A DNA stretch of 64,000 bases from Alphaproteobacteria bacterium (GTDB lineage Bacteria; Pseudomonadota; Alphaproteobacteria; CAAGCB01; CAG-977). The position numbers and the translations under genes are program-made. The stretch lies in the NCBI GenBank assembly GCA_024413465.1, contig JAKSVU010000001.1, forward strand, positions 159,820-223,819, in the 5' to 3' direction. Under the pieces are notes generated by a model. That model was given only the letters and a program-made list of their open reading frames with translations, had not been told where the DNA came from and made no database searches. Positions 14,531 to 60,864 of the stretch are shown in pieces (position 1 is the stretch's first letter; each line of letters opens with the position of its first letter).

Positions 14531-15526
14531 TTACATTGCTTGAGAAACAGCAACTGCTACTGCAACACTAGCTCCAACCATTGGGTTATTACCCATACCG
14601 ATCAAGCCCATCATTTCGACGTGTGCTGGAACGGAAGAAGAACCCGCAAATTGAGCATCACCATGCATACGCCCCATTGTATCGGTCATACCATAAGAAG
14701 CAGGACCTGCTGCTACGTTATCTGGGTGCAATGTACGACCTGTACCACCACCACTAGCAACTGAGAAGTACTTCTTACCATGTTCTATAGCCCATTTCTT
14801 GTATGTACCTGCAACTGGATGTTGAAAACGTGTTGGGTTGGTTGAGTTACCTGTAATAGAAACATCAACACCTTCTTTAATCATAATAGCCACACCTTCA
14901 GAAACATCGTCTGCACCGTAGCAACGAACTTTTGCACGATCACCTTTAGAAAAAGCTTTTTCAGAAACAATTTTCAAACTACCTGTTTTATAATCATATT
15001 CTGTTTCGACAGATGTAAATCCGTTAATACGAGAAATGATATAAGCAGCATCTTTTCCCAAACCGTTTAAAATAACCTGTAAGGGTTGTTTACGTACTTT
15101 ATTAGCTGTTAAAGCAATACCAATAGCACCTTCGGCAGCAGCAAAAGATTCATGACCTGCTAAGAAGCAGAAACATTTTGTTTCTTCGCTCAACAACATA
15201 GCTGCCAAGTTTCCATGACCTAAACCAACAGCACGTTGATCAGCAACAGATCCTGGAATGCAGAATGCCTGTAAACCAACACCAATCTTTTCAGCAGCTT
15301 CAGCAGCTGATTTTACGTTTGATTTAATCGCAACTGCAGCACCTAAAGTATATGCCCAGCAAGCATTTTCAAAGCAAATCGGCTGAATATCTTTTACAAT
15401 TTTAGCAACATCAATACCTTTATCTTTACAGATTTTATCTGCTTCTTCGATATTCTTAATACCATATTTTTTGCAGCATTCATCAATCTGCGCAATACGA
15501 CGTTCATAACTTTCAAAAAGACTCAT
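14531..15526 (-). CDS. GGGtGRT-family protein (conserved protein family of unknown function)
   Basis: Contains the family-defining SGGGTGRTLHPDNV motif. Gly/Ala-rich, 331 aa. Visibly more GC-rich than its neighbours. Confidence 0.7.
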   Translation of the reverse strand: MSLFESYERRIAQIDECCKKYGIKNIEEADKICKDKGIDVAKIVKDIQPICFENACWAYTLGAAVAIKSNVKSAAEAAEKIGVGLQAFCIPGSVADQRAVGLGHGNLAAMLLSEETKCFCFLAGHESFAAAEGAIGIALTANKVRKQPLQVILNGLGKDAAYIISRINGFTSVETEYDYKTGSLKIVSEKAFSKGDRAKVRCYGADDVSEGVAIMIKEGVDVSITGNSTNPTRFQHPVAGTYKKWAIEHGKKYFSVASGGGTGRTLHPDNVAAGPASYGMTDTMGRMHGDAQFAGSSSVPAHVEMMGLIGMGNNPMVGASVAVAVAVSQAM

Positions 15527-43367: not shown

Positions 43368-44864
43368 TTACTTTTTTCTAACAGTAAAAACTCTTTCAAT
43401 TTCCGTTAACAAAACCATAATATTTTTATTATGTTGCTTGTTTAGAATTGAAGTTTCTTTAAAATTCCATTCACTGTTAATAGAAATTAATGCATCTTGC
43501 AATTCCCAATGATAATTAAATTGTCGCCCCATTAACTCCTTTAATTGACTTATTTGATCATCTGTAAAAAGTTGTGCATCTATCAAATCAAATTTATTTC
43601 CATCAATTAACACATTAATTAGTTCTGCAGAATTTAATATATCTTGCTGCACAGAACTTGATAATTTACCAACTCTTGACTGAATAGCATTAACAAATTC
43701 AGTTCCAGATTTATATTTATTCCCCTTAAGAATTCCCAATTGTTTCGGAGAGATATTCTTTTGATGATCAATTATTCTATTATAAACAGGCGTTGATAAA
43801 AAATACGTTTTCTGAGTATAAACATTTTGATTAAAAACATTCTGCATAAAAAACAATGCAAAAAAACAAATAGCTGCTGCAATTACTGGGGTAATCACCC
43901 AACCACAAATGATTCTGCCAACAACACTCCACTTTATTGTTTTTGCAGCCCCTTTGCATAGTCCAACTCCAATAACTGCACCAACAACTGCCTGCGTAGA
44001 TGAAACTGGAACCAACGGTATTGTGGGTAAATCATGAGAAGCTAAAAAATATTCTAAACCTTCTGATGCAAAAATAAACAAAACAAATGATTGAGCAACA
44101 ACAACAACCCATGCTGCAAATGGAGAAAGTGGCATTAACCCTTTTCCAACAGTCCCCATTACTTTGTGTGAATATGTAAATACTCCTACTGCCGTAGCAA
44201 TAGACCCAATAAAGAACAACTGCTGAACTGCTGATATATGTATACCATTTATATCTAAATCAAAAAAAGGAGCTACTGGAACAAAGACACCCACAACGTT
44301 TGCCATATTATTAGCCCCTAATGAATATGCACCAAAAGCTCCTGTAACTATCATGGCTATTCTTGTATAATAATCTCTTTTAAGTAAATGTATCTTTGCA
44401 CTTCTTAAAAGTTTATTTAATGATAAATAAATTATTGCAGAAAATAACGCTGATAAAAGCGGACATGCAACCCAGGTTGATGCAATTTTCACAACAGAAT
44501 TAACATCTGTAACCGAATCTGTAAACCAGTTCCATCCTATAATCGCACCTACAACAGCTTGAGATACGGAAACTGGCAAACCACATTTTATCATTGAATA
44601 TACGGTAAAAGCTGCTGCAAAAGCTGTGGTAAAAGCACCCGCTATAGCACTAACCGTACCCAAACTTCCTAAAGTATGAGCTGCCCCCACACCACTTATA
44701 ACAGCCCCCAACGTAATAAATATACTACAAACTATCGCTGCTATTTTAAAGCGAACCATTCTCGTACTTACAGCTGTACCAAAAATATTTGCGGCATCGT
44801 TCGCTCCCAAGGACCATCCTAAGAACAAACCACTACTTAAAAAAATAAGTCCTGTAATCCCCAT
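43368..44864 (-). CDS. PiT-family inorganic phosphate transporter (PHO4 domains) with a large central hydrophilic insertion
   Basis: LGANDAAN and GANNMAN PHO4 repeats. 498 aa. Confidence 0.75.
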   Translation of the reverse strand: MGITGLIFLSSGLFLGWSLGANDAANIFGTAVSTRMVRFKIAAIVCSIFITLGAVISGVGAAHTLGSLGTVSAIAGAFTTAFAAAFTVYSMIKCGLPVSVSQAVVGAIIGWNWFTDSVTDVNSVVKIASTWVACPLLSALFSAIIYLSLNKLLRSAKIHLLKRDYYTRIAMIVTGAFGAYSLGANNMANVVGVFVPVAPFFDLDINGIHISAVQQLFFIGSIATAVGVFTYSHKVMGTVGKGLMPLSPFAAWVVVVAQSFVLFIFASEGLEYFLASHDLPTIPLVPVSSTQAVVGAVIGVGLCKGAAKTIKWSVVGRIICGWVITPVIAAAICFFALFFMQNVFNQNVYTQKTYFLSTPVYNRIIDHQKNISPKQLGILKGNKYKSGTEFVNAIQSRVGKLSSSVQQDILNSAELINVLIDGNKFDLIDAQLFTDDQISQLKELMGRQFNYHWELQDALISINSEWNFKETSILNKQHNKNIMVLLTEIERVFTVRKK

Positions 44865-44875
44865 AGTAAACTCAA

Positions 44876-45538
44876 TTAATTATCACGTTTGATTACATAT
44901 ATAGCTAATTTATCTGTTATATCCTCAGCCATATCAGCTAAGTTATCAATCATCTCTATAAAACTACATAGATGCATCTTATTTGCTAACGGCAAATCTG
45001 ATGAAAAAATAGCTTTTTTTATCTTTGTACTTATTCTATCTGCTTCACTTTCATAAAAACGAACTTTGTGAATATAATCACGACAGGAATTAAAATCACG
45101 AAAAAAAGTTCTCGCTGCAATGGTTATTTGTTCAACAGAATTTGTAACTGATTCCACAATAGCACTTACATCTGAATGTAGCATAGATGGGAAAACTGGT
45201 TGTTCTATCAAAAAACTATATCCATTTGTTTCATAAGCATCAATTATGGCATCTAAGTCTTCAACCAAACTGAGAACATCACCTCGCAAATCTGGAATTA
45301 AATTTTGTTCATACAACCCCGTTTCGATTTCACGTCTCAATTCATCAGCTCGACTTTCAATATGACCTACTTGTTCTGTATGAGCTGTAAAATCATCAGT
45401 TGCCCCGTATTCTAAATAAACACTTAAAGCTTTTTTATAAATTAAACCAGCTTCCGAAATTCTATCTAAAAACTCATCAATTTTATTTTCTAAGGCACGA
45501 CTGCCGTAAAACATTGAAAGACCTTTTGCTAAATTCAT
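44876..45538 (-). CDS. DUF47 (TIGR00153, PhoU-like) Pit accessory protein
   Basis: Position directly downstream of pit, helical-bundle composition, and the family-typical N-terminal GSRALENKIDEFLD. Confidence 0.65.
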   Translation of the reverse strand: MNLAKGLSMFYGSRALENKIDEFLDRISEAGLIYKKALSVYLEYGATDDFTAHTEQVGHIESRADELRREIETGLYEQNLIPDLRGDVLSLVEDLDAIIDAYETNGYSFLIEQPVFPSMLHSDVSAIVESVTNSVEQITIAARTFFRDFNSCRDYIHKVRFYESEADRISTKIKKAIFSSDLPLANKMHLCSFIEMIDNLADMAEDITDKLAIYVIKRDN

Positions 45539-45599
45539 TTTTCCCTCTTCTCTTAATAAACTTTTACAATCCTACCAAGCTACATTTTAAAAATCAAAT

Positions 45600-46370
45600 C
45601 TATTTCTTAATTTTTAATAGCTTATACGACAAAATCACAGCAAAGAATGTTACAAAAAACAAGACTGCACATAGTGCATTTACATCAGGTTTTATTCCCG
45701 TTTGAACCATTGAATAAATTTTTAGTGGTAAAATTTCAAAACTTTTATCTCCTACAAAATAACTTATAACAACATCATCTATAGACAATGTAAAACTCAT
45801 AAGCCATCCTGCAAAAACTGCTGGAATGATTAATGGTATCAATATTTTTCGAACGATATCAACATCTGTCGCTCCAAGATCGGAAGCTGCTTCTATCAAT
45901 TGTTTATCAAATCCCTTTAATCTAGCTAGTACCGTCATAGTCACATATGGAAAACAAAAAACCGTATGCGATAAAAGTAACGTCGTAAAGCCTAATGGTA
46001 CCCCCAACACAATAAACATTACCACTAAAGAAATTCCCTGAACAATTTCAGGTGACATCATTATCACGGACAACGAACTATATACAACTTTTTGCCCTAT
46101 AAATTTATATCTATGTAAAGCTATTGCAGTTATGGTTCCTACAACTGTAGACAGACACGCTGACATTGTTGCTAAAATAATTGATCTAATTGCTGCTTGA
46201 AGTAAATCACTATTGCTGAATAAATTTGAATACCATTTAGTTGTAAATCCATTCCATGTATCTGATATTTCACTATTACTAAAAGATAAAACGATAGCAA
46301 CTATCAATGGTATATACAAGACCAAATAGACCGTCAATATATACAGAAATTTTAAAAATTTTCTTACCAT
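45600..46370 (-). CDS. potC: Spermidine/putrescine ABC transporter permease PotC
   Basis: ABC permease EAA-like loop (IEAASDLGAT). 4-7-nt overlaps in the potA-potB-potC order. Confidence 0.75.
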   Translation of the reverse strand: MVRKFLKFLYILTVYLVLYIPLIVAIVLSFSNSEISDTWNGFTTKWYSNLFSNSDLLQAAIRSIILATMSACLSTVVGTITAIALHRYKFIGQKVVYSSLSVIMMSPEIVQGISLVVMFIVLGVPLGFTTLLLSHTVFCFPYVTMTVLARLKGFDKQLIEAASDLGATDVDIVRKILIPLIIPAVFAGWLMSFTLSIDDVVISYFVGDKSFEILPLKIYSMVQTGIKPDVNALCAVLFFVTFFAVILSYKLLKIKK

Positions 46371-47227
46371 AATTGACGTTCCTCTTCTACGGTATTTCCA
46401 CTCTTAAAATATAACTTTAAAAGTAACAACATAAAAACTGTTAATGAAACACTAATTGCAGCACCTATTGGCCAATCTTTATCAACCGTAAATTTATTAC
46501 GAATAATTGTTCCTAAAACACTAATATCCGCTCCACCTAAAATATCTGAAACATAAAATAAAGTTAACGCTGGTAAGAAAACCATTATACACCCAGCAAC
46601 AATACCTGAAAAACTTAATGGAATTGTGATTTTAAAAAAGACCTCAGCACTTCCTGCTCCTAAATCCCTTGCTGCCTCAATTACACTTCTGTCAATTTTT
46701 TCTAAGACTGCATACAATGGTAAAATCATAAATGGAAGTAACGTATAGCACATTCCAACAAAAACCGCAAAATTTGTATTTAACAGAACTAATGGACTTT
46801 TAATCAAACCAATTTTTAAAAGGATTGTATTGATAAAACCATCTTTACTTAAAATCGATATCAATGCATAATTTCTAACCAAGGAATTTGTCCAAAAAGG
46901 AACTATGATAAGCATCAGAAATAAGATTCTGTAATCTTTTGAGATTCTAGCAATGATACAGGTAAAGGGATAACCAACTAATAAACAGAATACCGTCGTA
47001 GCAATAGATAAACTAAATGATTTTACTATTATTTCCAACAAAGCCGTATCTGTTAAGGCAACATAATTCTGCAGATTAAGTGGCAATCTCAAATACCACT
47101 CTGCATCCTTTGTTAAAAAACTAGCCAATAAAACCAAAAGATTTGGAGCAAAAACCATCACTCCTAACCAGATAAAAATAAAATACAATACTGCTGTGCG
47201 ACAAAAAGAATCAGGCGTTTTATGCAT
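46364..47227 (-). CDS. potB: Spermidine/putrescine ABC transporter permease PotB
   Basis: ABC permease with EAARDLGAG loop. 287 aa. Confidence 0.75.
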   Translation of the reverse strand: MHKTPDSFCRTAVLYFIFIWLGVMVFAPNLLVLLASFLTKDAEWYLRLPLNLQNYVALTDTALLEIIVKSFSLSIATTVFCLLVGYPFTCIIARISKDYRILFLMLIIVPFWTNSLVRNYALISILSKDGFINTILLKIGLIKSPLVLLNTNFAVFVGMCYTLLPFMILPLYAVLEKIDRSVIEAARDLGAGSAEVFFKITIPLSFSGIVAGCIMVFLPALTLFYVSDILGGADISVLGTIIRNKFTVDKDWPIGAAISVSLTVFMLLLLKLYFKSGNTVEEERQLW

Positions 47228-48329
47228 CAGGCAAAATTACCTCCCAATCTTTAATCCAAGATACATTAACAACATCATCAACAGCATAAATAATATCCGG
47301 ATCATCTTCATTGAAAAATTGCGTAGCCATAATCATGTTTCCACCTGCAGTTTGAATCCATAAATCTATAGTTCTTCCCTTATAAACCAAATGATTTATT
47401 ACCCCCCTTAAGGCATTTTCCGGAGCATCCATTTCAGCAGAATTAACTTTACTTACGACCATATCTTCAGGTCTTAATAAAACTTTAATTTTACTTCCAC
47501 GACTAACTTCAAAAGCTTTTGGTTTTCTTAATTGGTAAAACATTCCCTCTACGACAGTGTCAAAATTAGAATCATCTACTTTCAAGACCATTCCATCAAA
47601 AACATTAATTTCCCCAACAAACTTTGCAACGAACATATTTTTTGGTTCTTCATAAATCTGAATCGGAGATCCTACCTGTTCAATCATACCTTCATTTAAA
47701 ACAACAACTCTATCTGACATAGATAAAGCTTCTTCTTGATCATGAGTAACATACACAAACGTCAACCCCAAATCTTTTTGTAACTCTTTTAATTCTATTT
47801 GCATTTCCTGACGAAGCTTATAATCCAAAGCAGATAGAGGTTCATCCAATAATAAAATTTTTGGATTATTAATAAATGCACGAGCCATTGCTACACGTTG
47901 TTGTTGCCCACTAGATAATTCCGAAGGAAAACGAGCATAAAATTGGCTCATTTTTACTTTTTCAAGAGCCTTAAAAACTTCTTGCTCAATAACTTCATCT
48001 TCAATGCCCTTCATCACAAGACCAAAAGCAACGTTATCAAAAACATTCATATGCGGAAACAAGGCATATTGTTGAAAAATTGTATTCACAAACCTTCGAT
48101 TTGGAGGCAAATGAGAAATTTCTTTTCCATTCATTAAAATTTTCCCACTTGTAGGTCTTTCAAAACCAGCTATTAATCTTAACAATGTCGTTTTTCCACA
48201 CCCTGAAGGTCCAAGTAATGTCAAAAACTCACCGTCATTGATCACTAAATCAACATCATCTAAAACCTTATTTACACCAAAAAATTTTGTTAAACCTTTT
48301 AGCTCTAACAAAGAATGTTGTTCGTTCAC
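47220..48329 (-). CDS. potA: Spermidine/putrescine import ATP-binding protein PotA
   Basis: GPSGCGKTT Walker A, LSGGQQQRVAMARA signature, and a C-terminal TOBE-like domain. 369 aa. Confidence 0.8.
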   Translation of the reverse strand: MNEQHSLLELKGLTKFFGVNKVLDDVDLVINDGEFLTLLGPSGCGKTTLLRLIAGFERPTSGKILMNGKEISHLPPNRRFVNTIFQQYALFPHMNVFDNVAFGLVMKGIEDEVIEQEVFKALEKVKMSQFYARFPSELSSGQQQRVAMARAFINNPKILLLDEPLSALDYKLRQEMQIELKELQKDLGLTFVYVTHDQEEALSMSDRVVVLNEGMIEQVGSPIQIYEEPKNMFVAKFVGEINVFDGMVLKVDDSNFDTVVEGMFYQLRKPKAFEVSRGSKIKVLLRPEDMVVSKVNSAEMDAPENALRGVINHLVYKGRTIDLWIQTAGGNMIMATQFFNEDDPDIIYAVDDVVNVSWIKDWEVILPDA

Positions 48330-48451
48330 TATTTTTTTCCTTTATCAAAATTATTCTAAGATTTATTTTATACAATTTATTTCAATAAAATAAATAAAAA
48401 TTTCCCTTCAAAATTATAAAAATTTGAATAAACTCCTTAAATGATTGGAGA

Positions 48452-49021
48452 TTGTCTTTGAATAAAAAAAATCGTTTTATTAAAATGTTAAAAAAAGTTT
48501 TTAGCAAGAAAGCAAAAACTTTAAATAAAAATAATGTATTTCCCGTTAAAGGTTGCATCGTTCGATGTAACCTTGGAGTTCTACTTGACCATTCCGGAAT
48601 TTATGTAGGAAATGGGAAAATTGTCAATTTAACACGAAATGGTGAAATAAAACTTGAAAACTTTCAATCTTTTTTTCCACCAGGAACAGATCCAAATTCT
48701 AATAAAATTTATACAGCATGTCTTGATGGAACAAATATTGTACTTCATTCAAAAGAAGCATATAAACGTGCATTACAAAAAGTTAATCATTCTTCGAAAT
48801 ACAATATTCTTTTTAATAATTGCCACAGATTTACATGTGGCTGTATAAATGGAAATTTTGAGAATGAAACTGTATCTTTTTCAATGCTTGAAGAAAATAT
48901 TTTAAGAAACATTAATAAGTTAATTCCTCAAAAAAATTTTTTAATCCGTTTTTTTCTAAATCTTTTTACAAAAAAGAAGAAGATATTAAATAAAATTATT
49001 TGGAAACCTATTGAATTTTAA
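48452..49021 (+). CDS. LRAT/PLAAT (H-rev107)-like NlpC/P60-superfamily protein
   Basis: HSGIYVGNGKIVNL parallels HWALYIGDGYVIHL, and KYNILFNNCHRF parallels KYSIVSRNCEHF (catalytic Cys block) of PLAAT/LRAT enzymes. The start codon is uncertain (a TTG with a poorly spaced SD). Confidence 0.5.
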   Translation: MSLNKKNRFIKMLKKVFSKKAKTLNKNNVFPVKGCIVRCNLGVLLDHSGIYVGNGKIVNLTRNGEIKLENFQSFFPPGTDPNSNKIYTACLDGTNIVLHSKEAYKRALQKVNHSSKYNILFNNCHRFTCGCINGNFENETVSFSMLEENILRNINKLIPQKNFLIRFFLNLFTKKKKILNKIIWKPIEF

Positions 49022-49060
49022 TTTGCTAAACAAACCATAACGGGGTATCCTTATCTAGTT

Positions 49061-50086
49061 TTGTTAAAAAAGGGAATTAAAATGGGATATTTATCAAAAA
49101 GAAAATTTATAGAACGTGAACGTTCTTTAACGCTATTATTACTCATGTTGATTCCATTAATAACCTTAATTGGAACCTTAGGAAGAAGTTTTAACTGGTA
49201 TTTGGACTATATTGGTGAATTTAAGTTACAAGCTGCTGTTATCAGTGGAATTTTATCTTTATGGTGTATCATAAAACAACGTTGGCTAGAAATGTTGATT
49301 TATATTGTTTTTTTAATCGTAAATCTTTTATTGATAGCCACTCATTACCATTTATCTTCTTCAGAAAGTATTCTTCCCGAAGACAGTTATGAGTTTAAAT
49401 TTTTATACCAAGATTTAAAAAATACATCAAAAAATGACCTTGATAACATACGTTTACAACTATCCTATTCTCAAGCAAATTTAATTTTATGGACAAATGT
49501 TCCAGCCGATATTTATAGAAATTTAAATAAAATTAAAAACAATTTTATTCTTCTAAATCAAACCCCCAATAAAGAGGGAAAGATGATGTTAATTTTAGCA
49601 GATGCCCCAGCTCTTAATCGTGGTTTAATTAAAGGTGATTCTGGAGCTTGGGTTTCATTAAAAATTGGTGAAAGAAAAGCTACTATTGCTCTGACTCATC
49701 TTGACAATCCTTGGAATCAAAAAAATTACAATTTAGCAAAGAGCAAAATCTCTGAAATTTCACAATTTGCAAATTCTAGAGATGAACCTATCATTTTATT
49801 TGGAGGTTTTGGAGCTTCAGGATGGAGTTACTTACTTCGAGATTTAGAGAAATCAGCATCTCTAAGAACAGAAGGTAAAATTTTATTAACAGTAAATGCA
49901 AAACTTCCACGCCTTTTCAGGAAACCAACAGATTCCATTTATGCCCATCCAGGCATAGAAATAGATGATTTAGAAGAAGATGCTTCCTTAAAAACAAATC
50001 ATCTAGGCATTAGTGGAACTATCCGTATTGCTCCAATTGTAAAAGAAATAGAATTTTATGATTTAGAACCAACAATTTCTGAATAA
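49061..50086 (+). CDS. Membrane-anchored hypothetical protein with weak endonuclease/exonuclease/phosphatase-like motifs
   Basis: Two N-terminal TM helices. Blocks ILWTNVP, ALTHLDNP, ILFGGFGAS and C-terminal TNHLGI loosely parallel EEP motifs, but the Asp of GDFN and of SDH are not conserved. Confidence 0.3.
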   Translation: MLKKGIKMGYLSKRKFIERERSLTLLLLMLIPLITLIGTLGRSFNWYLDYIGEFKLQAAVISGILSLWCIIKQRWLEMLIYIVFLIVNLLLIATHYHLSSSESILPEDSYEFKFLYQDLKNTSKNDLDNIRLQLSYSQANLILWTNVPADIYRNLNKIKNNFILLNQTPNKEGKMMLILADAPALNRGLIKGDSGAWVSLKIGERKATIALTHLDNPWNQKNYNLAKSKISEISQFANSRDEPIILFGGFGASGWSYLLRDLEKSASLRTEGKILLTVNAKLPRLFRKPTDSIYAHPGIEIDDLEEDASLKTNHLGISGTIRIAPIVKEIEFYDLEPTISE

Positions 50087-50102
50087 GGAGATTTATACAA
50101 AA

Positions 50103-50441
50103 ATGTACAGAAAAAAAACCGATGAAGAAAAAAAAATCACAGCTCAGAAAAGAAGAATTGTAGACATTGACAATATTAAGAATGAACTAAATCGAGGAAT
50201 TATAACTCGATTAAACAAAGTTTCTGGACAAATCGAGGGAGTAAAACGAATGATTGATGACAATCGCTATTTTATGGAAACAATCATTCAATTACGAGCT
50301 GTACGAAGTTCTTTAAAAAGCATTGAAAATAACATGTTAAAAGATATTTTTTCTTCATTACTTTCATCAACAACTCTATCCGAAAATGAAATTGATAAGA
50401 AAATTGAAGAATTAAGAATTATTCTAAATGATAAATGTTAA
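50103..50441 (+). CDS. CsoR/RcnR/FrmR-family (DUF156) transcriptional regulator-like protein
   Basis: RLNKVSGQIEGVKRMIDDNRYFMETIIQLRAVRSSL aligns with the CsoR core RLKRIEGQVRGI.KMIEED.YCIDVLTQISAV, but the W-X-Y-Z metal ligands are replaced (C to F, H to D, C to S). Confidence 0.5.
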   Translation: MYRKKTDEEKKITAQKRRIVDIDNIKNELNRGIITRLNKVSGQIEGVKRMIDDNRYFMETIIQLRAVRSSLKSIENNMLKDIFSSLLSSTTLSENEIDKKIEELRIILNDKC

Positions 50442-50478
50442 AAAAATCTTCCCCCCAAAAAAGTGAAGTAAAAAAAAA

Positions 50479-50517
50479 TCCCCTTTGGAAAAAATTTTTT
50501 CAAAGGGGAATTTTTTT
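50479..50517. terminator. Bidirectional terminator between the regulator gene and htpG
   Basis: tcccctttgg-aaaaaatttttt-caaagggga followed by a T7 run. Confidence 0.6.
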
Positions 50518-50559
50518 ACTGTCCTATAAAAAAGGGCAATCCCAAAATAAACTTTTAAG

Positions 50560-52419
50560 TTATAAATTCAAAACCTTGAGCATCAAATCCGTTACTTTAT
50601 TTGAAAAACCAGCAGGATTTGAAACTGCTTCACCTTCAATAATTTTCGCTTGATCATACAAAATTTGAATCATTGATTTTATATCATCCCCTTTTTCCCC
50701 TAATTTTATTTTCTTTGCCAAAAGTTTAATTAACGGATGATATGGGTTTATATCAAAATAATGCGTTGATGAATACAAAATAGGTTGATTATGCTGTCGC
50801 ATCATTCTTTCTAAATGTATTGAACATTCTCCATCTCCAGAAGATAATGCTACTGGACTTTTAGTTAAACGTTCCGTTGTCCGAACTTCTTTTATTTCAT
50901 CACCAATTACTTCTTTTGCTAGTTCCTTTAATAACGTTAAATCATCTTCTAAACATTTTTCTTCCTTTGTTTCATTTAAAAGAGAAAAATCTTTTAAATC
51001 TAACGCCCCCATTTGAATTGATTTTATTGTTTTTTCCTTATATTGAGTCAAACTTTGAGGCCAAAACTCATCAATTGGATCTGTCAACAATAAAACTTCT
51101 ATCCCTCTAGCTGCAAAACCTTCCAACTGTGGATTATTTCTTAAAACAGAAAGATTATCTCCTGTAATATAATATATGCTTTTTTGATCAGGTTTCATTC
51201 TTGATATGTATTCAGATAAAGAAATAACACCTTCACTTTCCGTTGAATTAAAACGGCACAAATCTGCAATTTCATCGCGATTTACAGAATCTTCAAACAA
51301 ACCTTCTTTTAACACAGTTCCAAAAGCATTCCAAAATTTCAAATAATCTTCCGTATTTTCTGTTTTTTTCTTTAATTCTCCTAAAATACGGCGAACAACC
51401 CCGGATTTTATTTTTGTTAGAACTGGAGTTTTTTGTAACATTTCACGACTAACATTTAGCGGAAGTTCTTTTGTATCAATAATTCCTTGAACAAAACGCA
51501 AATAATTTGGCATCATATCTGGAGTTTGATCCGTAATAAAAACTCTATTTACATAAAGCTGAATTTTTGCATTTCGATCTGGCTGAAAAATATCAAATGG
51601 TGTTTTTGACGGAATAAACATTAACGCTGTATATTCAATTGTTCCTTCTGCTTTATAATGTAATGTATCCCAAGGTTCATCAAATGCATTTGATATATGT
51701 CTATAAAAATCACTATATTCTTTTTCTGTAATTTCAGCTTTATTTCTAGTCCATAAAGCTGTTGCCTGATTTATAGTTTCTGTTTCACCCAAATAATTCA
51801 TAACTACAGGGAAAGAAATATGATCTGAGAATTGACGAACTATTGTTCTAACATCTCCTGCTTCTGCAAACTTTTCAAAATCCTTTTTCAAAAAAAGTTT
51901 AACTTGTGTACCTCTAGAAACATTTTCTTCCTCTGAGATGGTAAATATTCCTCTTCCAGTTGAAGACCACAACCACCCTTGATCTTCTCCAGCTTTTCTA
52001 GAACGTACTTCAACTTTTTCTGCAACCATAAAAGCAGAATAAAAACCTACCCCAAATTGTCCAATTATTGTTGCATCCTTTTGTTTATCGCCCGTTAAAT
52101 TATTCAAAAATTCAGCAGAACCTGATTTTCCAATACTCCCCAAATCTTTTATTAGATCTTCACGATTCATTCCAATTCCGTTATCACTTATTGTAAGTGT
52201 TTTTGCTTCTTTATCTGGAATAATATTTATTTTAAATTCACCATCACCTTTTGCAATATCTGGTTTTACAATAGCTGCATAACGTAATTTATCACAAGCA
52301 TCAGATGCATTTGATATCAATTCTCGAAGAAAGACATCTGTATTGGAATATAATGCATTAACAACGATATCTAAAACTTTACCAACTTCTGCTTGAAATT
52401 CCATTTTTTCTTCAGACAT
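50560..52419 (-). CDS. htpG: Molecular chaperone HtpG (Hsp90)
   Basis: FQAEVGKVLDIV, ELISNASDA and IGQFGVGFYSAFMVA are HATPase/Hsp90 signatures. 619 aa. Confidence 0.9.
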   Translation of the reverse strand: MSEEKMEFQAEVGKVLDIVVNALYSNTDVFLRELISNASDACDKLRYAAIVKPDIAKGDGEFKINIIPDKEAKTLTISDNGIGMNREDLIKDLGSIGKSGSAEFLNNLTGDKQKDATIIGQFGVGFYSAFMVAEKVEVRSRKAGEDQGWLWSSTGRGIFTISEEENVSRGTQVKLFLKKDFEKFAEAGDVRTIVRQFSDHISFPVVMNYLGETETINQATALWTRNKAEITEKEYSDFYRHISNAFDEPWDTLHYKAEGTIEYTALMFIPSKTPFDIFQPDRNAKIQLYVNRVFITDQTPDMMPNYLRFVQGIIDTKELPLNVSREMLQKTPVLTKIKSGVVRRILGELKKKTENTEDYLKFWNAFGTVLKEGLFEDSVNRDEIADLCRFNSTESEGVISLSEYISRMKPDQKSIYYITGDNLSVLRNNPQLEGFAARGIEVLLLTDPIDEFWPQSLTQYKEKTIKSIQMGALDLKDFSLLNETKEEKCLEDDLTLLKELAKEVIGDEIKEVRTTERLTKSPVALSSGDGECSIHLERMMRQHNQPILYSSTHYFDINPYHPLIKLLAKKIKLGEKGDDIKSMIQILYDQAKIIEGEAVSNPAGFSNKVTDLMLKVLNL

Positions 52420-52509: not shown

Positions 52510-53652
52510 TTGTTATTGCAGTCGATAAAAAATAGACTTATAGTAAATCAAACTTTCACATACAATATTAAGGTATTCACATCGATGACAAATTCGTTTA
52601 ACTTTTACAAAGATGAAGAAAATAACGTTATTTTAACTACGGATAATACTGTAGTTGGACAAATTTCAGGTTTATGCTTTAAATCATCAACAACACTTAA
52701 TTTAAGTCGTCCAAATGAAAAAGATTTTTTCGAAAATTTAAACAATTTTCTTTTTTTTGAATTTCAAAAGAAAATCAACGATATATACCTATCAACACAA
52801 GAAAACTTTTCAATATCTGATGATGGGGCTATACTTTTTAAAAATGAATCTATTGGAAATATTTGTAAAGGTCAGGATAATCTTCATCCACAAATTATGA
52901 TAAAAACACACAACTCCATTTCAACACTATCAATTAATAAGATTTCAAAAGTTATTGATCGTTGGTTAGAATATTATCTTAATGAAAAGTTATTTCCTTT
53001 GTACAATGCCTTAAAAGCTACAAAAGAAAATGAAATCTCTGCTTATGGTCGAGGTATTTTATTTCAACTTACAGAACATTTTGGAACAATGCCTAGAAAT
53101 ATAGTTCAAGATATGATTGAAAAAATCAAGGATGAAGATCGAAAAAGAATTGCCAAAATTGGAATTCGTTTTGGATATAACTATTTATTTTTTCCATTAT
53201 TGTTGAAGCCATCTGCACAAAGAATTTGTACAATTTTATGGAAAGTATGGAATGAAAAACTATCTTCATCACCTGAATTAAAATTTGATGGGAAAATGTC
53301 AATTGATATTGATAAAAAAATTCATAAACAAATATATAATGTTCAAGGTTATATTCTCGCGGGAAGGAAAGCAATCAGAGTTGATATTATGGAAAGATTT
53401 TCTGCAAAGCTTCGCGAGGTAACGAGAATAAATAAAAATGAACTTGTTCCATTACCACCTGAGTTATTGTCATTAGCAGGATTAAAAAAAGATGAAATTA
53501 GCGATATTCTGTTGTTTTTAGGTTTCAAAGCTATTATTGAAAATGATCAAATTATGATTCGAGTCAAATATAAAAATTCTTTCAAAAAAAATGAGCATAT
53601 TGTTTTGAATGAAGACTCTCCTTTTGCAGCTCTTGCTAATTTGAAAAAATGA
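52510..53652 (+). CDS. Hypothetical protein
   Basis: 380 aa, soluble, no motif recognised. Its stop overlaps the folKP start. Confidence 0.35.
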   Translation: MLLQSIKNRLIVNQTFTYNIKVFTSMTNSFNFYKDEENNVILTTDNTVVGQISGLCFKSSTTLNLSRPNEKDFFENLNNFLFFEFQKKINDIYLSTQENFSISDDGAILFKNESIGNICKGQDNLHPQIMIKTHNSISTLSINKISKVIDRWLEYYLNEKLFPLYNALKATKENEISAYGRGILFQLTEHFGTMPRNIVQDMIEKIKDEDRKRIAKIGIRFGYNYLFFPLLLKPSAQRICTILWKVWNEKLSSSPELKFDGKMSIDIDKKIHKQIYNVQGYILAGRKAIRVDIMERFSAKLREVTRINKNELVPLPPELLSLAGLKKDEISDILLFLGFKAIIENDQIMIRVKYKNSFKKNEHIVLNEDSPFAALANLKK

Positions 53653-54878
53653 CCTCTTATATAGCTGTTGGTTCTAATTTAGGAAACCGTAAAAGTAATA
53701 TAATAAACGCATACAAACTCCTTCAAAAAAAAGGGTATAGTATTTTAGAGGTTTCGCCTCTTTATGAAACTCCAGCAGCCTTATTATATAAAAATGCACA
53801 AGATGATTGGAATAAACCTTATTTAAATTGCATTTTTAAATTAGAAACGAAAAATTCACCATTTAAAATTTTAAGTGATTTAAAGGATATTGAATTCACT
53901 TTAAAGAGAAGTGCTCACGAAAAATGGTCACCAAGAACCATTGATTTAGATATAATCGAACATAATGATGTCCAAATAAGAACTTCTAACTTGACTATTC
54001 CACATTCTTTATATTTAGAAAGAAGTTTTGTTCTTGACCCACTTTCATGGTTTAAGCAAATTTCAAAAAAATATTTATATAAAAAATCTCATCAACCTCT
54101 CATTATGGGAATCATAAATGCTACCCCAAATTCATTTTCTGAAAATGAATTTTCTATAAAAAAATGTAAACAAAAAATCTCGCATTGGATAAAAAATAGT
54201 ATTCAAATTATTGATATCGGAGCAGAAGCATCGAATCCTGATGTAAATCCCATTGATGAAGAAACTGAACAAAATAGACTAATCGAAATTTTTAAACATA
54301 TATCCAAACAAAAAAATATTTTATCTTTTACTAAATTTAGCATTGATACGTATCATTATAAAACAGCTGAATTAGCTCTTTATCATAATTTTGATATAAT
54401 AAATGACATTCATGGATTTAATGATAAAAATATGCTCTCTTTAGCAAAAGAGCACCCCAATAAAAATTTTATTTTTATGCATAATGAAGATATCCGACAA
54501 TTACCTCTAAAAGATACTCTCCCTAACATAGAAAATTGGCTCAAAAAAAAGTTAGATACTTTTTCAAAAACAAATCTCAATCTTAATCATTTTATTTTTG
54601 ATCCTGGAATTGGATTTGGAAAAACAAAAAACCAATCCTTATTAATTTTACAACATATTGAAGAATTTCAAAAATATGGATTACGAATACTGATTGGTCA
54701 TTCTAGAAAATCATTTATGGAAACATTTTCCTCAAAAAAACCTGAAAAGCGAGACTTAGAAACTATTGCAATTTCTCTCTCTATCTGTGATAAAATTGAC
54801 GTGCTTCGTGTACACTCGCCTATCGAACATCAACAAGCTCTAAAAGCTTCAAATCATATGTTTAATCAATTTTTTTAA
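53649..54878 (+). CDS. folKP: Bifunctional HPPK (FolK) / dihydropteroate synthase (FolP) fusion
   Basis: N-terminal YIAVGSNLGNR...RTIDLDII is HPPK. The C-terminal half has the IMGIINATPNSFS and FDPGIGFGKT DHPS signatures. Confidence 0.8.
   Translation: MTSYIAVGSNLGNRKSNIINAYKLLQKKGYSILEVSPLYETPAALLYKNAQDDWNKPYLNCIFKLETKNSPFKILSDLKDIEFTLKRSAHEKWSPRTIDLDIIEHNDVQIRTSNLTIPHSLYLERSFVLDPLSWFKQISKKYLYKKSHQPLIMGIINATPNSFSENEFSIKKCKQKISHWIKNSIQIIDIGAEASNPDVNPIDEETEQNRLIEIFKHISKQKNILSFTKFSIDTYHYKTAELALYHNFDIINDIHGFNDKNMLSLAKEHPNKNFIFMHNEDIRQLPLKDTLPNIENWLKKKLDTFSKTNLNLNHFIFDPGIGFGKTKNQSLLILQHIEEFQKYGLRILIGHSRKSFMETFSSKKPEKRDLETIAISLSICDKIDVLRVHSPIEHQQALKASNHMFNQFF

Positions 54879-60779: not shown

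Positions 60780-60864
<85 letters not shown>

Follow-up and report, generated by a model that had tools for sequence, protein, structure and literature searches.

An LRAT/PLAAT-type protein, a degenerate membrane EEP-fold protein and a CsoR-fold regulator lacking its ligand residues are encoded by three genes, likely inherited with the chromosome, that separate potA from htpG in an uncultured gut alphaproteobacterium

The locus considered here raises the question of whether three neighbouring genes of an alphaproteobacterial genome are an imported island that encodes a secreted effector or an ordinary part of the inherited chromosome. The genes lie on the forward strand between potA and htpG in a 64,000-nucleotide stretch of contig JAKSVU010000001.1 (positions 159,820 to 223,819; assembly GCA_024413465.1), referred to below as the window. 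Open reading frame 1 (ORF1, 48458-49021) encodes an LRAT/PLAAT-like permuted NlpC/P60 protein, ORF2 (49082-50086) a predicted inner-membrane protein with three transmembrane helices and an EEP-fold domain, and ORF3 (50103-50441) a CsoR-fold regulator (PF02583). The original prediction, which placed all three genes correctly, took them for an accessory island, placed by insertion between potA and htpG, and regarded the LRAT-like protein as a likely secreted effector of an intracellular bacterium. Neither interpretation is sustained here. The best overall explanation, which is considered reasonably probable although far from certain, is that the three genes are vertically inherited, lineage-specific genes with the separate roles proposed below. 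The conserved gene order, the lack of island hallmarks, the family and fold assignments and the states of the key residues, on which this explanation is built, were observed directly, whereas the enzymatic activity of ORF1, the orientation and inactivity of ORF2 and the DNA target and effector-independence of ORF3 are inferred.

Gene order in relatives, which the original prediction had itself named as able to overturn the island claim, carries most of the argument. Relatives of the ORF2 protein occur in the 27 GTDB species representatives that were compared; all of these are uncultured Alphaproteobacteria from gut, rumen or faeces, “Acetobacter sp. CAG:977” among them. When the window proteins were mapped onto these loci, the order PHO4-PhoU_div-potCBA<>LRAT...EEP (the paired arrows denote divergent transcription) was found in 15 of the 27. 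At those 15 loci PotA is approximately 85% identical to its window counterpart, while the LRAT and EEP proteins are approximately 50% identical, and independent metagenome contigs also display the potCBA<>LRAT...EEP order. In a close relative, locus L033 (81-86% identical), the gene order of the window is reproduced exactly, htpG included. A more distant genome from horse faeces (L022; PotA 71%, EEP 45%) has potCBA<>EEP-CsoR with no LRAT gene, and in a fourth lineage (L070; EEP 78%) a CsoR-like gene lies directly 3' of the EEP gene. The succession of an EEP gene and a CsoR-like gene is thus present in four lineages (the window, L033, L070 and L022), with identity falling to 45% for EEP and 33% for CsoR. 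Since relatives carry the genes in the same place, they appear to have been inherited as part of the chromosome instead of being imported as an effector island.

The contrary explanation, of horizontal acquisition with the LRAT/PLAAT-like protein serving an intracellular bacterium as a secreted phospholipase effector, does have several features in its favour: ORF1 is truly PLAAT-like, the three genes are restricted to one clade, and the G+C content of ORF1 is the lowest of the three (0.257, z = -1.9). However, the G+C content and the G+C content at third codon positions (GC3) of all three genes are within 2 standard deviations of the 53 long open reading frames of the window (z from -1.9 to +0.1), and GC3 is normal. 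There is no tRNA gene within 10 kb, the sole one in the window being at 60780, and no integrase. No similarity to the three genes was present in the plasmid collection, and the inverted-repeat scan (direct repeats were not scanned) returned only AT-rich repeats and the hairpin of the downstream terminator, with no inverted repeat flanking the genes. PADLOC gave no meaningful match, and no defence-system, toxin or secretion context is apparent at the locus. Furthermore, ORF1 possesses no signal peptide, hydrophobic N-terminus or trafficking domain (type IV translocation signals were not scored); its N-terminus is basic and not hydrophobic, so that no export through Sec is expected. The source, a metagenome-assembled genome from faeces or gut, is low in G+C (31%), its relatives derive from human gut, rumen and horse-faeces metagenomes, and none of this points to an intracellular lifestyle. 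Together with a place beside potA that is kept in at least 15 species at approximately 50% protein identity, by which the island and effector proposal is largely refuted, these features leave it a very slight chance of being correct.

What, then, does each gene encode? ORF1 codes for a permuted NlpC/P60 protein of the LRAT/PLAAT type and extends a known family by a new member from bacteria. It matches the Pfam LRAT profile PF04970 at 31.8 bits against a gathering cut-off of 24.3 (E 1.9e-7), so the similarity first noticed in short motif blocks is statistically supported, and PF04970 is precomputed on 32 of 32 homologues. The blocks were located at 48590-48631 (HSGIYVGNGKIVNL) and 48818-48832 (NCHRF), and the catalytic dyad has the permuted order, with the His box N-terminal to the nucleophilic Cys. 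Across 23 aligned homologues (alignment A2; residues are counted from ATG 48485), neither H36 of the HxGxYxG box (HSGIYVG in ORF1) nor C113 of NNCHRF varies. The AlphaFold2 model (pLDDT 84) has its best PDB matches in human PLAAT3, PLAAT2 and PLAAT4 (E 2e-4; target-normalised template-modelling score, TM, ~0.66), the top entries being 4dot, 4fa0, 7c3z and 7zom (E 2e-4 to 4e-4, TM 0.64-0.67).

Compared with the PLAAT/HRASLS and LRAT proteins (PF04970; 4DOT, 4FA0, 7C3Z, 4DPZ), ORF1 shares, besides the profile match above cut-off, a small single-domain build, the His-then-Cys order, the HxGxYxG box, an N-C-x-x-F cysteine motif and the fold (TM 0.66 to PLAAT3). It differs in having NNCHRF in place of NCEHF and in the second His of the triad: this third triad residue, 12 positions past the first His, is Ser, Asn or Gly in the ORF1 clade (IV[S/N/G]L). 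The position was mapped by motif alignment to the PLAAT3 sequence (PLAAT3 H35, LRAT H72). The clade also has a strongly conserved insert of approximately 50 residues (FFPPGTNPxSN.IYTAC) and four additional conserved cysteines. ORF1 has no clear C-terminal transmembrane anchor, its hydrophobic patch there (FLIRFFLNLF) being only some 10 residues long; in the model the C-terminus forms a short helix followed by a terminal beta-strand packed on the domain. Finally, ORF1 is bacterial and predicted to be cytoplasmic. As a separate observation, the four cysteines C24, C28, C79 and C120 are invariant or near-invariant in alignment A2 besides the catalytic Cys113, and may constitute a structural metal site.

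The acyl groups of lipids are what permuted NlpC/P60 enzymes act on (PMC3142127, PMC7387801, PMC12994826). In the mechanism proposed by analogy, ORF1 would be a soluble cytoplasmic protein acting at the inner leaflet of the membrane. There the invariant His would activate the invariant Cys, to which an acyl chain of a glycerophospholipid would be transferred to form a thioester. The chain would subsequently be hydrolysed, as by a phospholipase A1/2, or handed to an acceptor, as by an acyltransferase. Judged from family, fold and residue conservation, ORF1 is most likely a membrane-lipid remodelling enzyme and not a secreted toxin. The same acyl-thioester lipid chemistry is expected of it as of LnsA, which takes part in lipoprotein N-acylation in S. 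aureus, of YiiX/YaeF and of the T6SS (type VI secretion system) toxins Tox-Act1 and TseH, all members of the same superfamily (PMC7387801, PMC3142127, PMC12994826). Differences from these proteins are also clear: LnsA has a signal peptide and a CPBP-type partner, whereas ORF1 has neither; Tox-Act1 and TseH are found in conflict loci with immunity genes, a context that is missing here; and ORF1 belongs to the LRAT profile instead of the YiiX and Tox-Act1 profiles.

The toxins suggest another explanation, in which ORF1 and ORF2 form a toxin-immunity pair comparable to that of Tox-Act1, where ORF1 would be the permuted NlpC/P60 phospholipase acting as toxin and ORF2 the immunity protein in the membrane. 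Tox-Act1 and TseH are indeed permuted NlpC/P60 phospholipases with membrane-associated immunity proteins (PMC12994826), and in the window a membrane protein, ORF2, is encoded directly 3' of ORF1. Yet in most relatives an opposite-strand gene of approximately 400 codons separates the two, and in L022 the EEP gene is present at the locus without the LRAT gene. Moreover, ORF1 consists of the catalytic domain alone, no PAAR, Rhs, VgrG or T6SS context is found, and the EEP family, with 2052 profile matches, is far broader than the LRAT clade. A toxin-immunity pair is accordingly regarded as highly improbable.

The constant position of ORF1 opposite potA permits a further proposal, that it is a Cys-His amidase or acyltransferase acting on spermidine or putrescine, possibly in acyl- or gamma-glutamyl-linked form, imported by PotABC, and that it shares a conserved divergent promoter region with potABC. 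Divergent adjacency of potA and the LRAT gene is kept across at least 15 species, and both PotA and PotC score above their NCBIfam equivalog cut-offs. In addition, the pot cluster of one relative (L004) contains a GNAT acetyltransferase, and a papain-like Cys-His fold is shared by the glutathionylspermidine amidase (CHAP) domain and the arylamine N-acetyltransferases. Nevertheless, the closest profile and fold matches of ORF1 are lipid enzymes, the only distant homologue, P0032, adjoins an AraC regulator and not pot genes, and adjacency on opposite strands, even when conserved, is weak functional evidence. A link to polyamine uptake is therefore unlikely, though less so than either a toxin or an effector, and a role of ORF1 in membrane-lipid remodelling is preferred.

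ORF2 was assigned primarily by structure. Its predicted model (pLDDT 84) displays three long N-terminal helices of transmembrane length followed by an EEP-like domain with the four-layer alpha/beta sandwich of that fold. Foldseek returned 180 PDB matches at E <= 1e-3, including Tdp2 (E 2.8e-11, TM 0.66-0.71), neutral sphingomyelinase and staphylococcal beta-toxin (the latter two at E ~1e-9 to 1e-10). Direct sequence comparison gave no PF03372 match at E <= 1 in Pfam, none in NCBIfam and only noise (E > 0.5) against PDB chains; PF03372 is precomputed on 10 of 29 homologues and is weak where graded. Homology to the EEP superfamily was established transitively, since a profile of the ORF2 clade, searched against 1.84 billion representative proteins, recovered 2052 relatives at E <= 1e-3, nearly all of 300-345 amino acids with full-length matches and the same layout of three transmembrane helices and EEP domain, and the distant ones among them are clear PF03372 members (P0091, 88 bits; P0164, 83 bits). 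An alphaproteobacterial EEP gene 55% identical to ORF2 is also carried by L008 (CAVCSV010000045.1), a 9-kb contig deposited as Limosilactobacillus gorillae, which probably reflects bin contamination in the public record.

The residues that define EEP catalysis have largely been replaced. In distant relatives the full canonical series (N; E; H; GDxN; DH; SDH) is still present (alignment A3). Within the ORF2 clade the Glu of motif II has become an invariant Asn139 (alignments A1 and A3), and GDxN has become G-[G/N/D]-F-[G/K], in which Gly or Lys takes the place of Asn and Asp is kept in only a few members. The terminal Asp-His is variable across the clade and lost in many members. In the window protein GDxN reads GGFG (239-242) and SDH reads TNH (N307-H308), and the protein has D111 at motif I, H205 and D284. 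Of its seven canonical catalytic positions, five carry substitutions. The earlier description of a membrane protein with degenerate EEP-like motifs is thus borne out by model, fold search and motif alignment alike. It can be proposed that ORF2 arose within a large family of membrane EEP phosphoesterases whose catalytic sites are intact, and that its three helices would anchor it in the inner membrane with a cytoplasmic N-terminus and a periplasmic EEP-fold domain. This orientation is suggested by the positive-inside rule, which would place in the cytoplasm both the N-terminal KRK..RER segment and the KQR loop that follows helix 2. Loss of the metal-binding Glu, of the GDxN pair and often of the terminal Asp-His suggests ligand binding, scaffolding or changed chemistry, and ORF2 is most likely no longer a canonical phosphodiesterase.

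In comparison with other membrane-anchored EEP proteins (PF03372 with three N-terminal transmembrane helices), the ORF2 clade has the same length, architecture and MGY.xKRK motif, but has replaced the Glu (by Asn), GDxN and often the final Asp-His. To our knowledge, VanJ of Streptomyces is the sole named membrane-anchored member of the EEP group. Assignment of ORF2 as a VanJ was considered and ruled out, since it gives no match to the NCBIfam vanJ equivalog model and its distant relatives reach only 18-20 bits against a cut-off of 700. The organisms that carry the ORF2 clade are Gram-negative gut Alphaproteobacteria. The N-terminal motif, MGYLSKRK in ORF2 (49082-49120), recurs as MGY[LM]xKRK in distant relatives P0068-P0084 (~22-31% identical) and is missing from the catalytically intact members P0091-P0164 (alignment A3). 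Its conservation suggests a cytoplasmic interaction or targeting signal.

The substituted sites may be read differently, with ORF2 still active through altered chemistry, for example as a periplasmic phosphoesterase of lipids or the cell envelope akin to VanJ-like membrane EEPs, and ORF3 sensing, without thiol chemistry, what ORF2 consumes or produces. Since N139-V-P, R180-G, R233-D-x-P and W248-S are strictly invariant throughout the clade (alignment A1), a conserved functional surface is indicated, sphingomyelinases are among the best fold matches, and the distant relatives are intact EEPs with a faint similarity to VanJ. Substitution of most catalytic positions, a terminal His that is not conserved in the clade and the lack of any Pfam or NCBIfam match for ORF2 itself count against such activity. 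An active ORF2 is considered unlikely, while standing as the most credible of the alternatives discussed here, and a protein that has ceased to be a canonical phosphodiesterase remains the preferred assignment.

ORF3 belongs to the CsoR/RcnR/FrmR/CstR family (PF02583, DUF156), as the profile score (59.7 bits, cut-off 22.8, E 3.8e-16) and a phmmer match to the CsoR structure 4m1p (E 7e-9) demonstrate. It is small and all-helical, and its alpha1/alpha2 DNA-binding segment is nearly identical to that of canonical relatives. Alignment to the CsoR structures 4m1p, 4adz and 2hh7 places Phe-Ser-Leu where the Cu(I) ligands Cys-His-Cys are expected, with Phe at the first Cys and Ser and Leu at the His-x-x-x-Cys pair, which supports the earlier reading of the third gene as a DUF156-fold regulator without ligands. 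Expressed as the W-X-Y-Z fingerprint, for which the sensing patterns are x-C-H-C, H-C-H-H, P-C-H-x or x-C-x-C, ORF3 is x-F-S-L and its L022 homologue x-N-D-L, and the ligands are also missing from three close homologues. The nearest canonical relatives, P0065 and P0066 (~44% identical), keep Cys-His-Cys (alignment A4) and adjoin HMA/CopZ-like genes. According to published work, all characterised classes of the family keep at least the X Cys and sense through the W-X-Y-Z site (PMC8643695). A scan of JGI metagenome contigs likewise revealed the X Cys wherever it was readable among 34 family loci, except in the unrelated Cys-less L054; none of these loci was linked to an EEP gene, and the scan therefore added no further members of the ORF3 clade. 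ORF3 differs from the family additionally in a charged N-terminal extension and in its neighbours, which are the membrane pseudo-EEP gene and htpG, with no copA/copZ, rcnA, frmA or cst adjoining.

ORF2 and ORF3 very likely form one operon, as suggested by the gap of only 16 nucleotides, the AAGGAG that precedes ORF3 and the linkage of the two genes in four lineages. A candidate control site lies in the 60-nucleotide spacer between ORF1 and ORF2 (49022-49081), where a weak -35/-10 pair (TTGCTA-17 nt-TATCCT) is overlapped by ATAACGGGGTAT at 49037-49048, a G tract flanked by ATA/TAT. This site fits the type I operators described for the CsoR family (PMC5146963), and may be a further likeness to that family. 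The 5' half of the spacer, which contains it, is conserved in L033 (29 of 32 nucleotides) and the 3' half is not; in L022, ATACCGTGTAAGGTAT (ATACC-N6-GGTAT) occupies the equivalent place upstream of the EEP gene. According to the proposed mechanism, ORF3 would be a DNA-binding CsoR-fold repressor derived from a Cu(I)-sensing ancestor in which all three ligand residues were lost, and would repress the ORF2-ORF3 promoter through the G-tract site without responding to copper. It is probably an autorepressor of ORF2-ORF3 that acts independently of metal sensing. The operator scan also brought up a near-identical palindrome-like sequence, ATACG(C/G)CCCATTGTAT, at 14667-14682 of the window and at 17173-17188 of L022, which is probably a conserved coding segment.

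A bolder proposal can be made for the same two genes, that they are an undescribed transmembrane signalling or regulatory pair made of two scaffolds whose usual function is lost. The pseudo-EEP domain would face the periplasm and bind a ligand from the envelope or the host, and control of ORF3, which lacks every metal- or thiol-sensing residue, would pass through ORF2, or else through the charged extension at its own N-terminus, and not depend on a small-molecule ligand at the classical site. Retention of the pairing in four lineages, at EEP identity down to 45% and CsoR identity down to 33%, is in keeping with it. The proposal is nonetheless a long shot, about as doubtful as the polyamine link, and autorepression by ORF3 is retained as the preferred assignment.

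Several observations weigh against the explanation favoured here, in whole or in part. In CAG:977-type relatives an opposite-strand gene splits LRAT from EEP, and EEP is not followed by a CsoR-like gene; the split and this absence mean that the three genes are not one obligate unit, and LRAT, EEP and CsoR as a single functional unit was for that reason rejected. For ORF1, the replaced second His and the lack of a clear C-terminal anchor indicate that chemistry or substrate may differ from those of PLAATs, and the NCBI label “TMEM222 family” refers to a sister papain-like family. Regarding ORF2, the proposed topology is drawn from the positive-inside rule alone. The clade also keeps N/D at motif I together with Asp284, and the window protein His205 and His308 besides; given these residues, some residual or altered catalysis may persist. 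With respect to the operator, the 64-kb window contains ATAACGGGGTAT a single time where 0.11 occurrences are expected, for a motif picked post hoc, and the loose pattern ATAC-N4-8-GTAT is no commoner than in shuffled sequence. The chance frequency of the loose pattern makes the operator proposal weak, and the role of the ATAACGGGGTAT-type site is suggestive only.

The CAG:977-type loci (L001, 8684-15019; L006, L007, L017 and L027) were also examined for their remaining genes. The gene between LRAT and EEP, on the minus strand, encodes a membrane/coiled-coil protein of approximately 400 amino acids, and EEP is flanked by a TPR gene (minus strand) and a LonB/LonC-like protease gene (plus strand). 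None of the three is present in the window.

The main value of these results is corrective. The supposed effector island is a stretch of ordinary chromosome, conserved in the clade of this uncultured gut alphaproteobacterium, and for that reason the locus should not be carried on as a candidate for horizontal transfer or virulence. There is no sign of a new kind of system. The sole unusual feature is that ORF2 and ORF3 have both lost the residues that define the function of their families. A small CsoR clade that lacks Cys-His-Cys, and that is still conserved and linked to one particular gene, could show how CsoR control operates without that site. The family of membrane-anchored EEP proteins is large and uncharacterised, and the branch that ORF2 represents has become catalytically degenerate yet is still under strong sequence constraint. 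Furthermore, the bacterial LRAT-like enzyme conserved beside potABC offers a tractable candidate in the search for new acyl-transfer activities of bacteria on lipids (or polyamines).

As regards the boundaries of the locus, potA (47220-48329, minus strand), part of potABC (45538-48329), is divergent from ORF1, and htpG (50560-52419, minus strand) is convergent with ORF3. NCBIfam confirms PotA, PotB and PotC, with equivalog scores of 517 bits for PotA (cut-off 482) and 347 for PotC (cut-off 326), and Pfam HSP90 confirms HtpG. The intergenic region between potA and ORF1 (48330-48457), which presumably holds the promoters of both genes, is mostly conserved in L033, and its promoter-like matches are not above chance. 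Between ORF3 and htpG, the strong bidirectional terminator proposed earlier is present as an intrinsic terminator at 50479-50509, with a G+C-rich 14-bp stem, a 5' A-run and a 3' T-run; a different G+C-rich hairpin occupies this place in L033. An Rfam scan of 48000-50800 found nothing close to any gathering score.

Three starts were considered for ORF1, TTG 48458, TTG 48452 and ATG 48485. The first is most likely, given GGAG (48447-48450), its presumed ribosome-binding site, 7 nucleotides 5' of it, homologues that open with MNKxRRF and the NCBI model of 187 amino acids. For ORF2, ATG 49082 is most likely, giving 334 amino acids in agreement with NCBI MCQ2965298.1. The window matches a metagenome-assembled genome at NCBI whose locus tags begin with MJ250_, and all three proteins are already in public databases with automatic annotation: MCQ2965297.1 (187 amino acids) as “TMEM222 family protein”, MCQ2965298.1 as “hypothetical protein” and MCQ2965299.1 (ORF3) as “metal-sensing transcriptional repressor”.

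Some minor observations concern the neighbouring genes. The PHO4-family permease is single-copy in the window (43368-44864) and is present as two to three tandem paralogues in L001, L010, L013, L016 and L028, the copies always adjoining a PhoU_div gene. No potD gene is found beside potABC or elsewhere in the 64-kb window; it lies directly downstream of potC in L004, and most other relatives are without it there. Beside htpG, the window has an open reading frame of 380 amino acids (52510-53652, plus strand) that matches only the C-terminal ~360 amino acids of an 841-amino-acid P-loop/helicase-like open reading frame beside htpG in L006 (11633-14158), and both it and its L033 counterpart (354 amino acids) seem to lack the N-terminal NTPase part. 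It is followed, with an overlap of 4 nucleotides, by a fused folK-folP gene (53649-54878, plus strand; 409 amino acids) with HPPK and pterin-binding domains, and the same fusion is present in L033.

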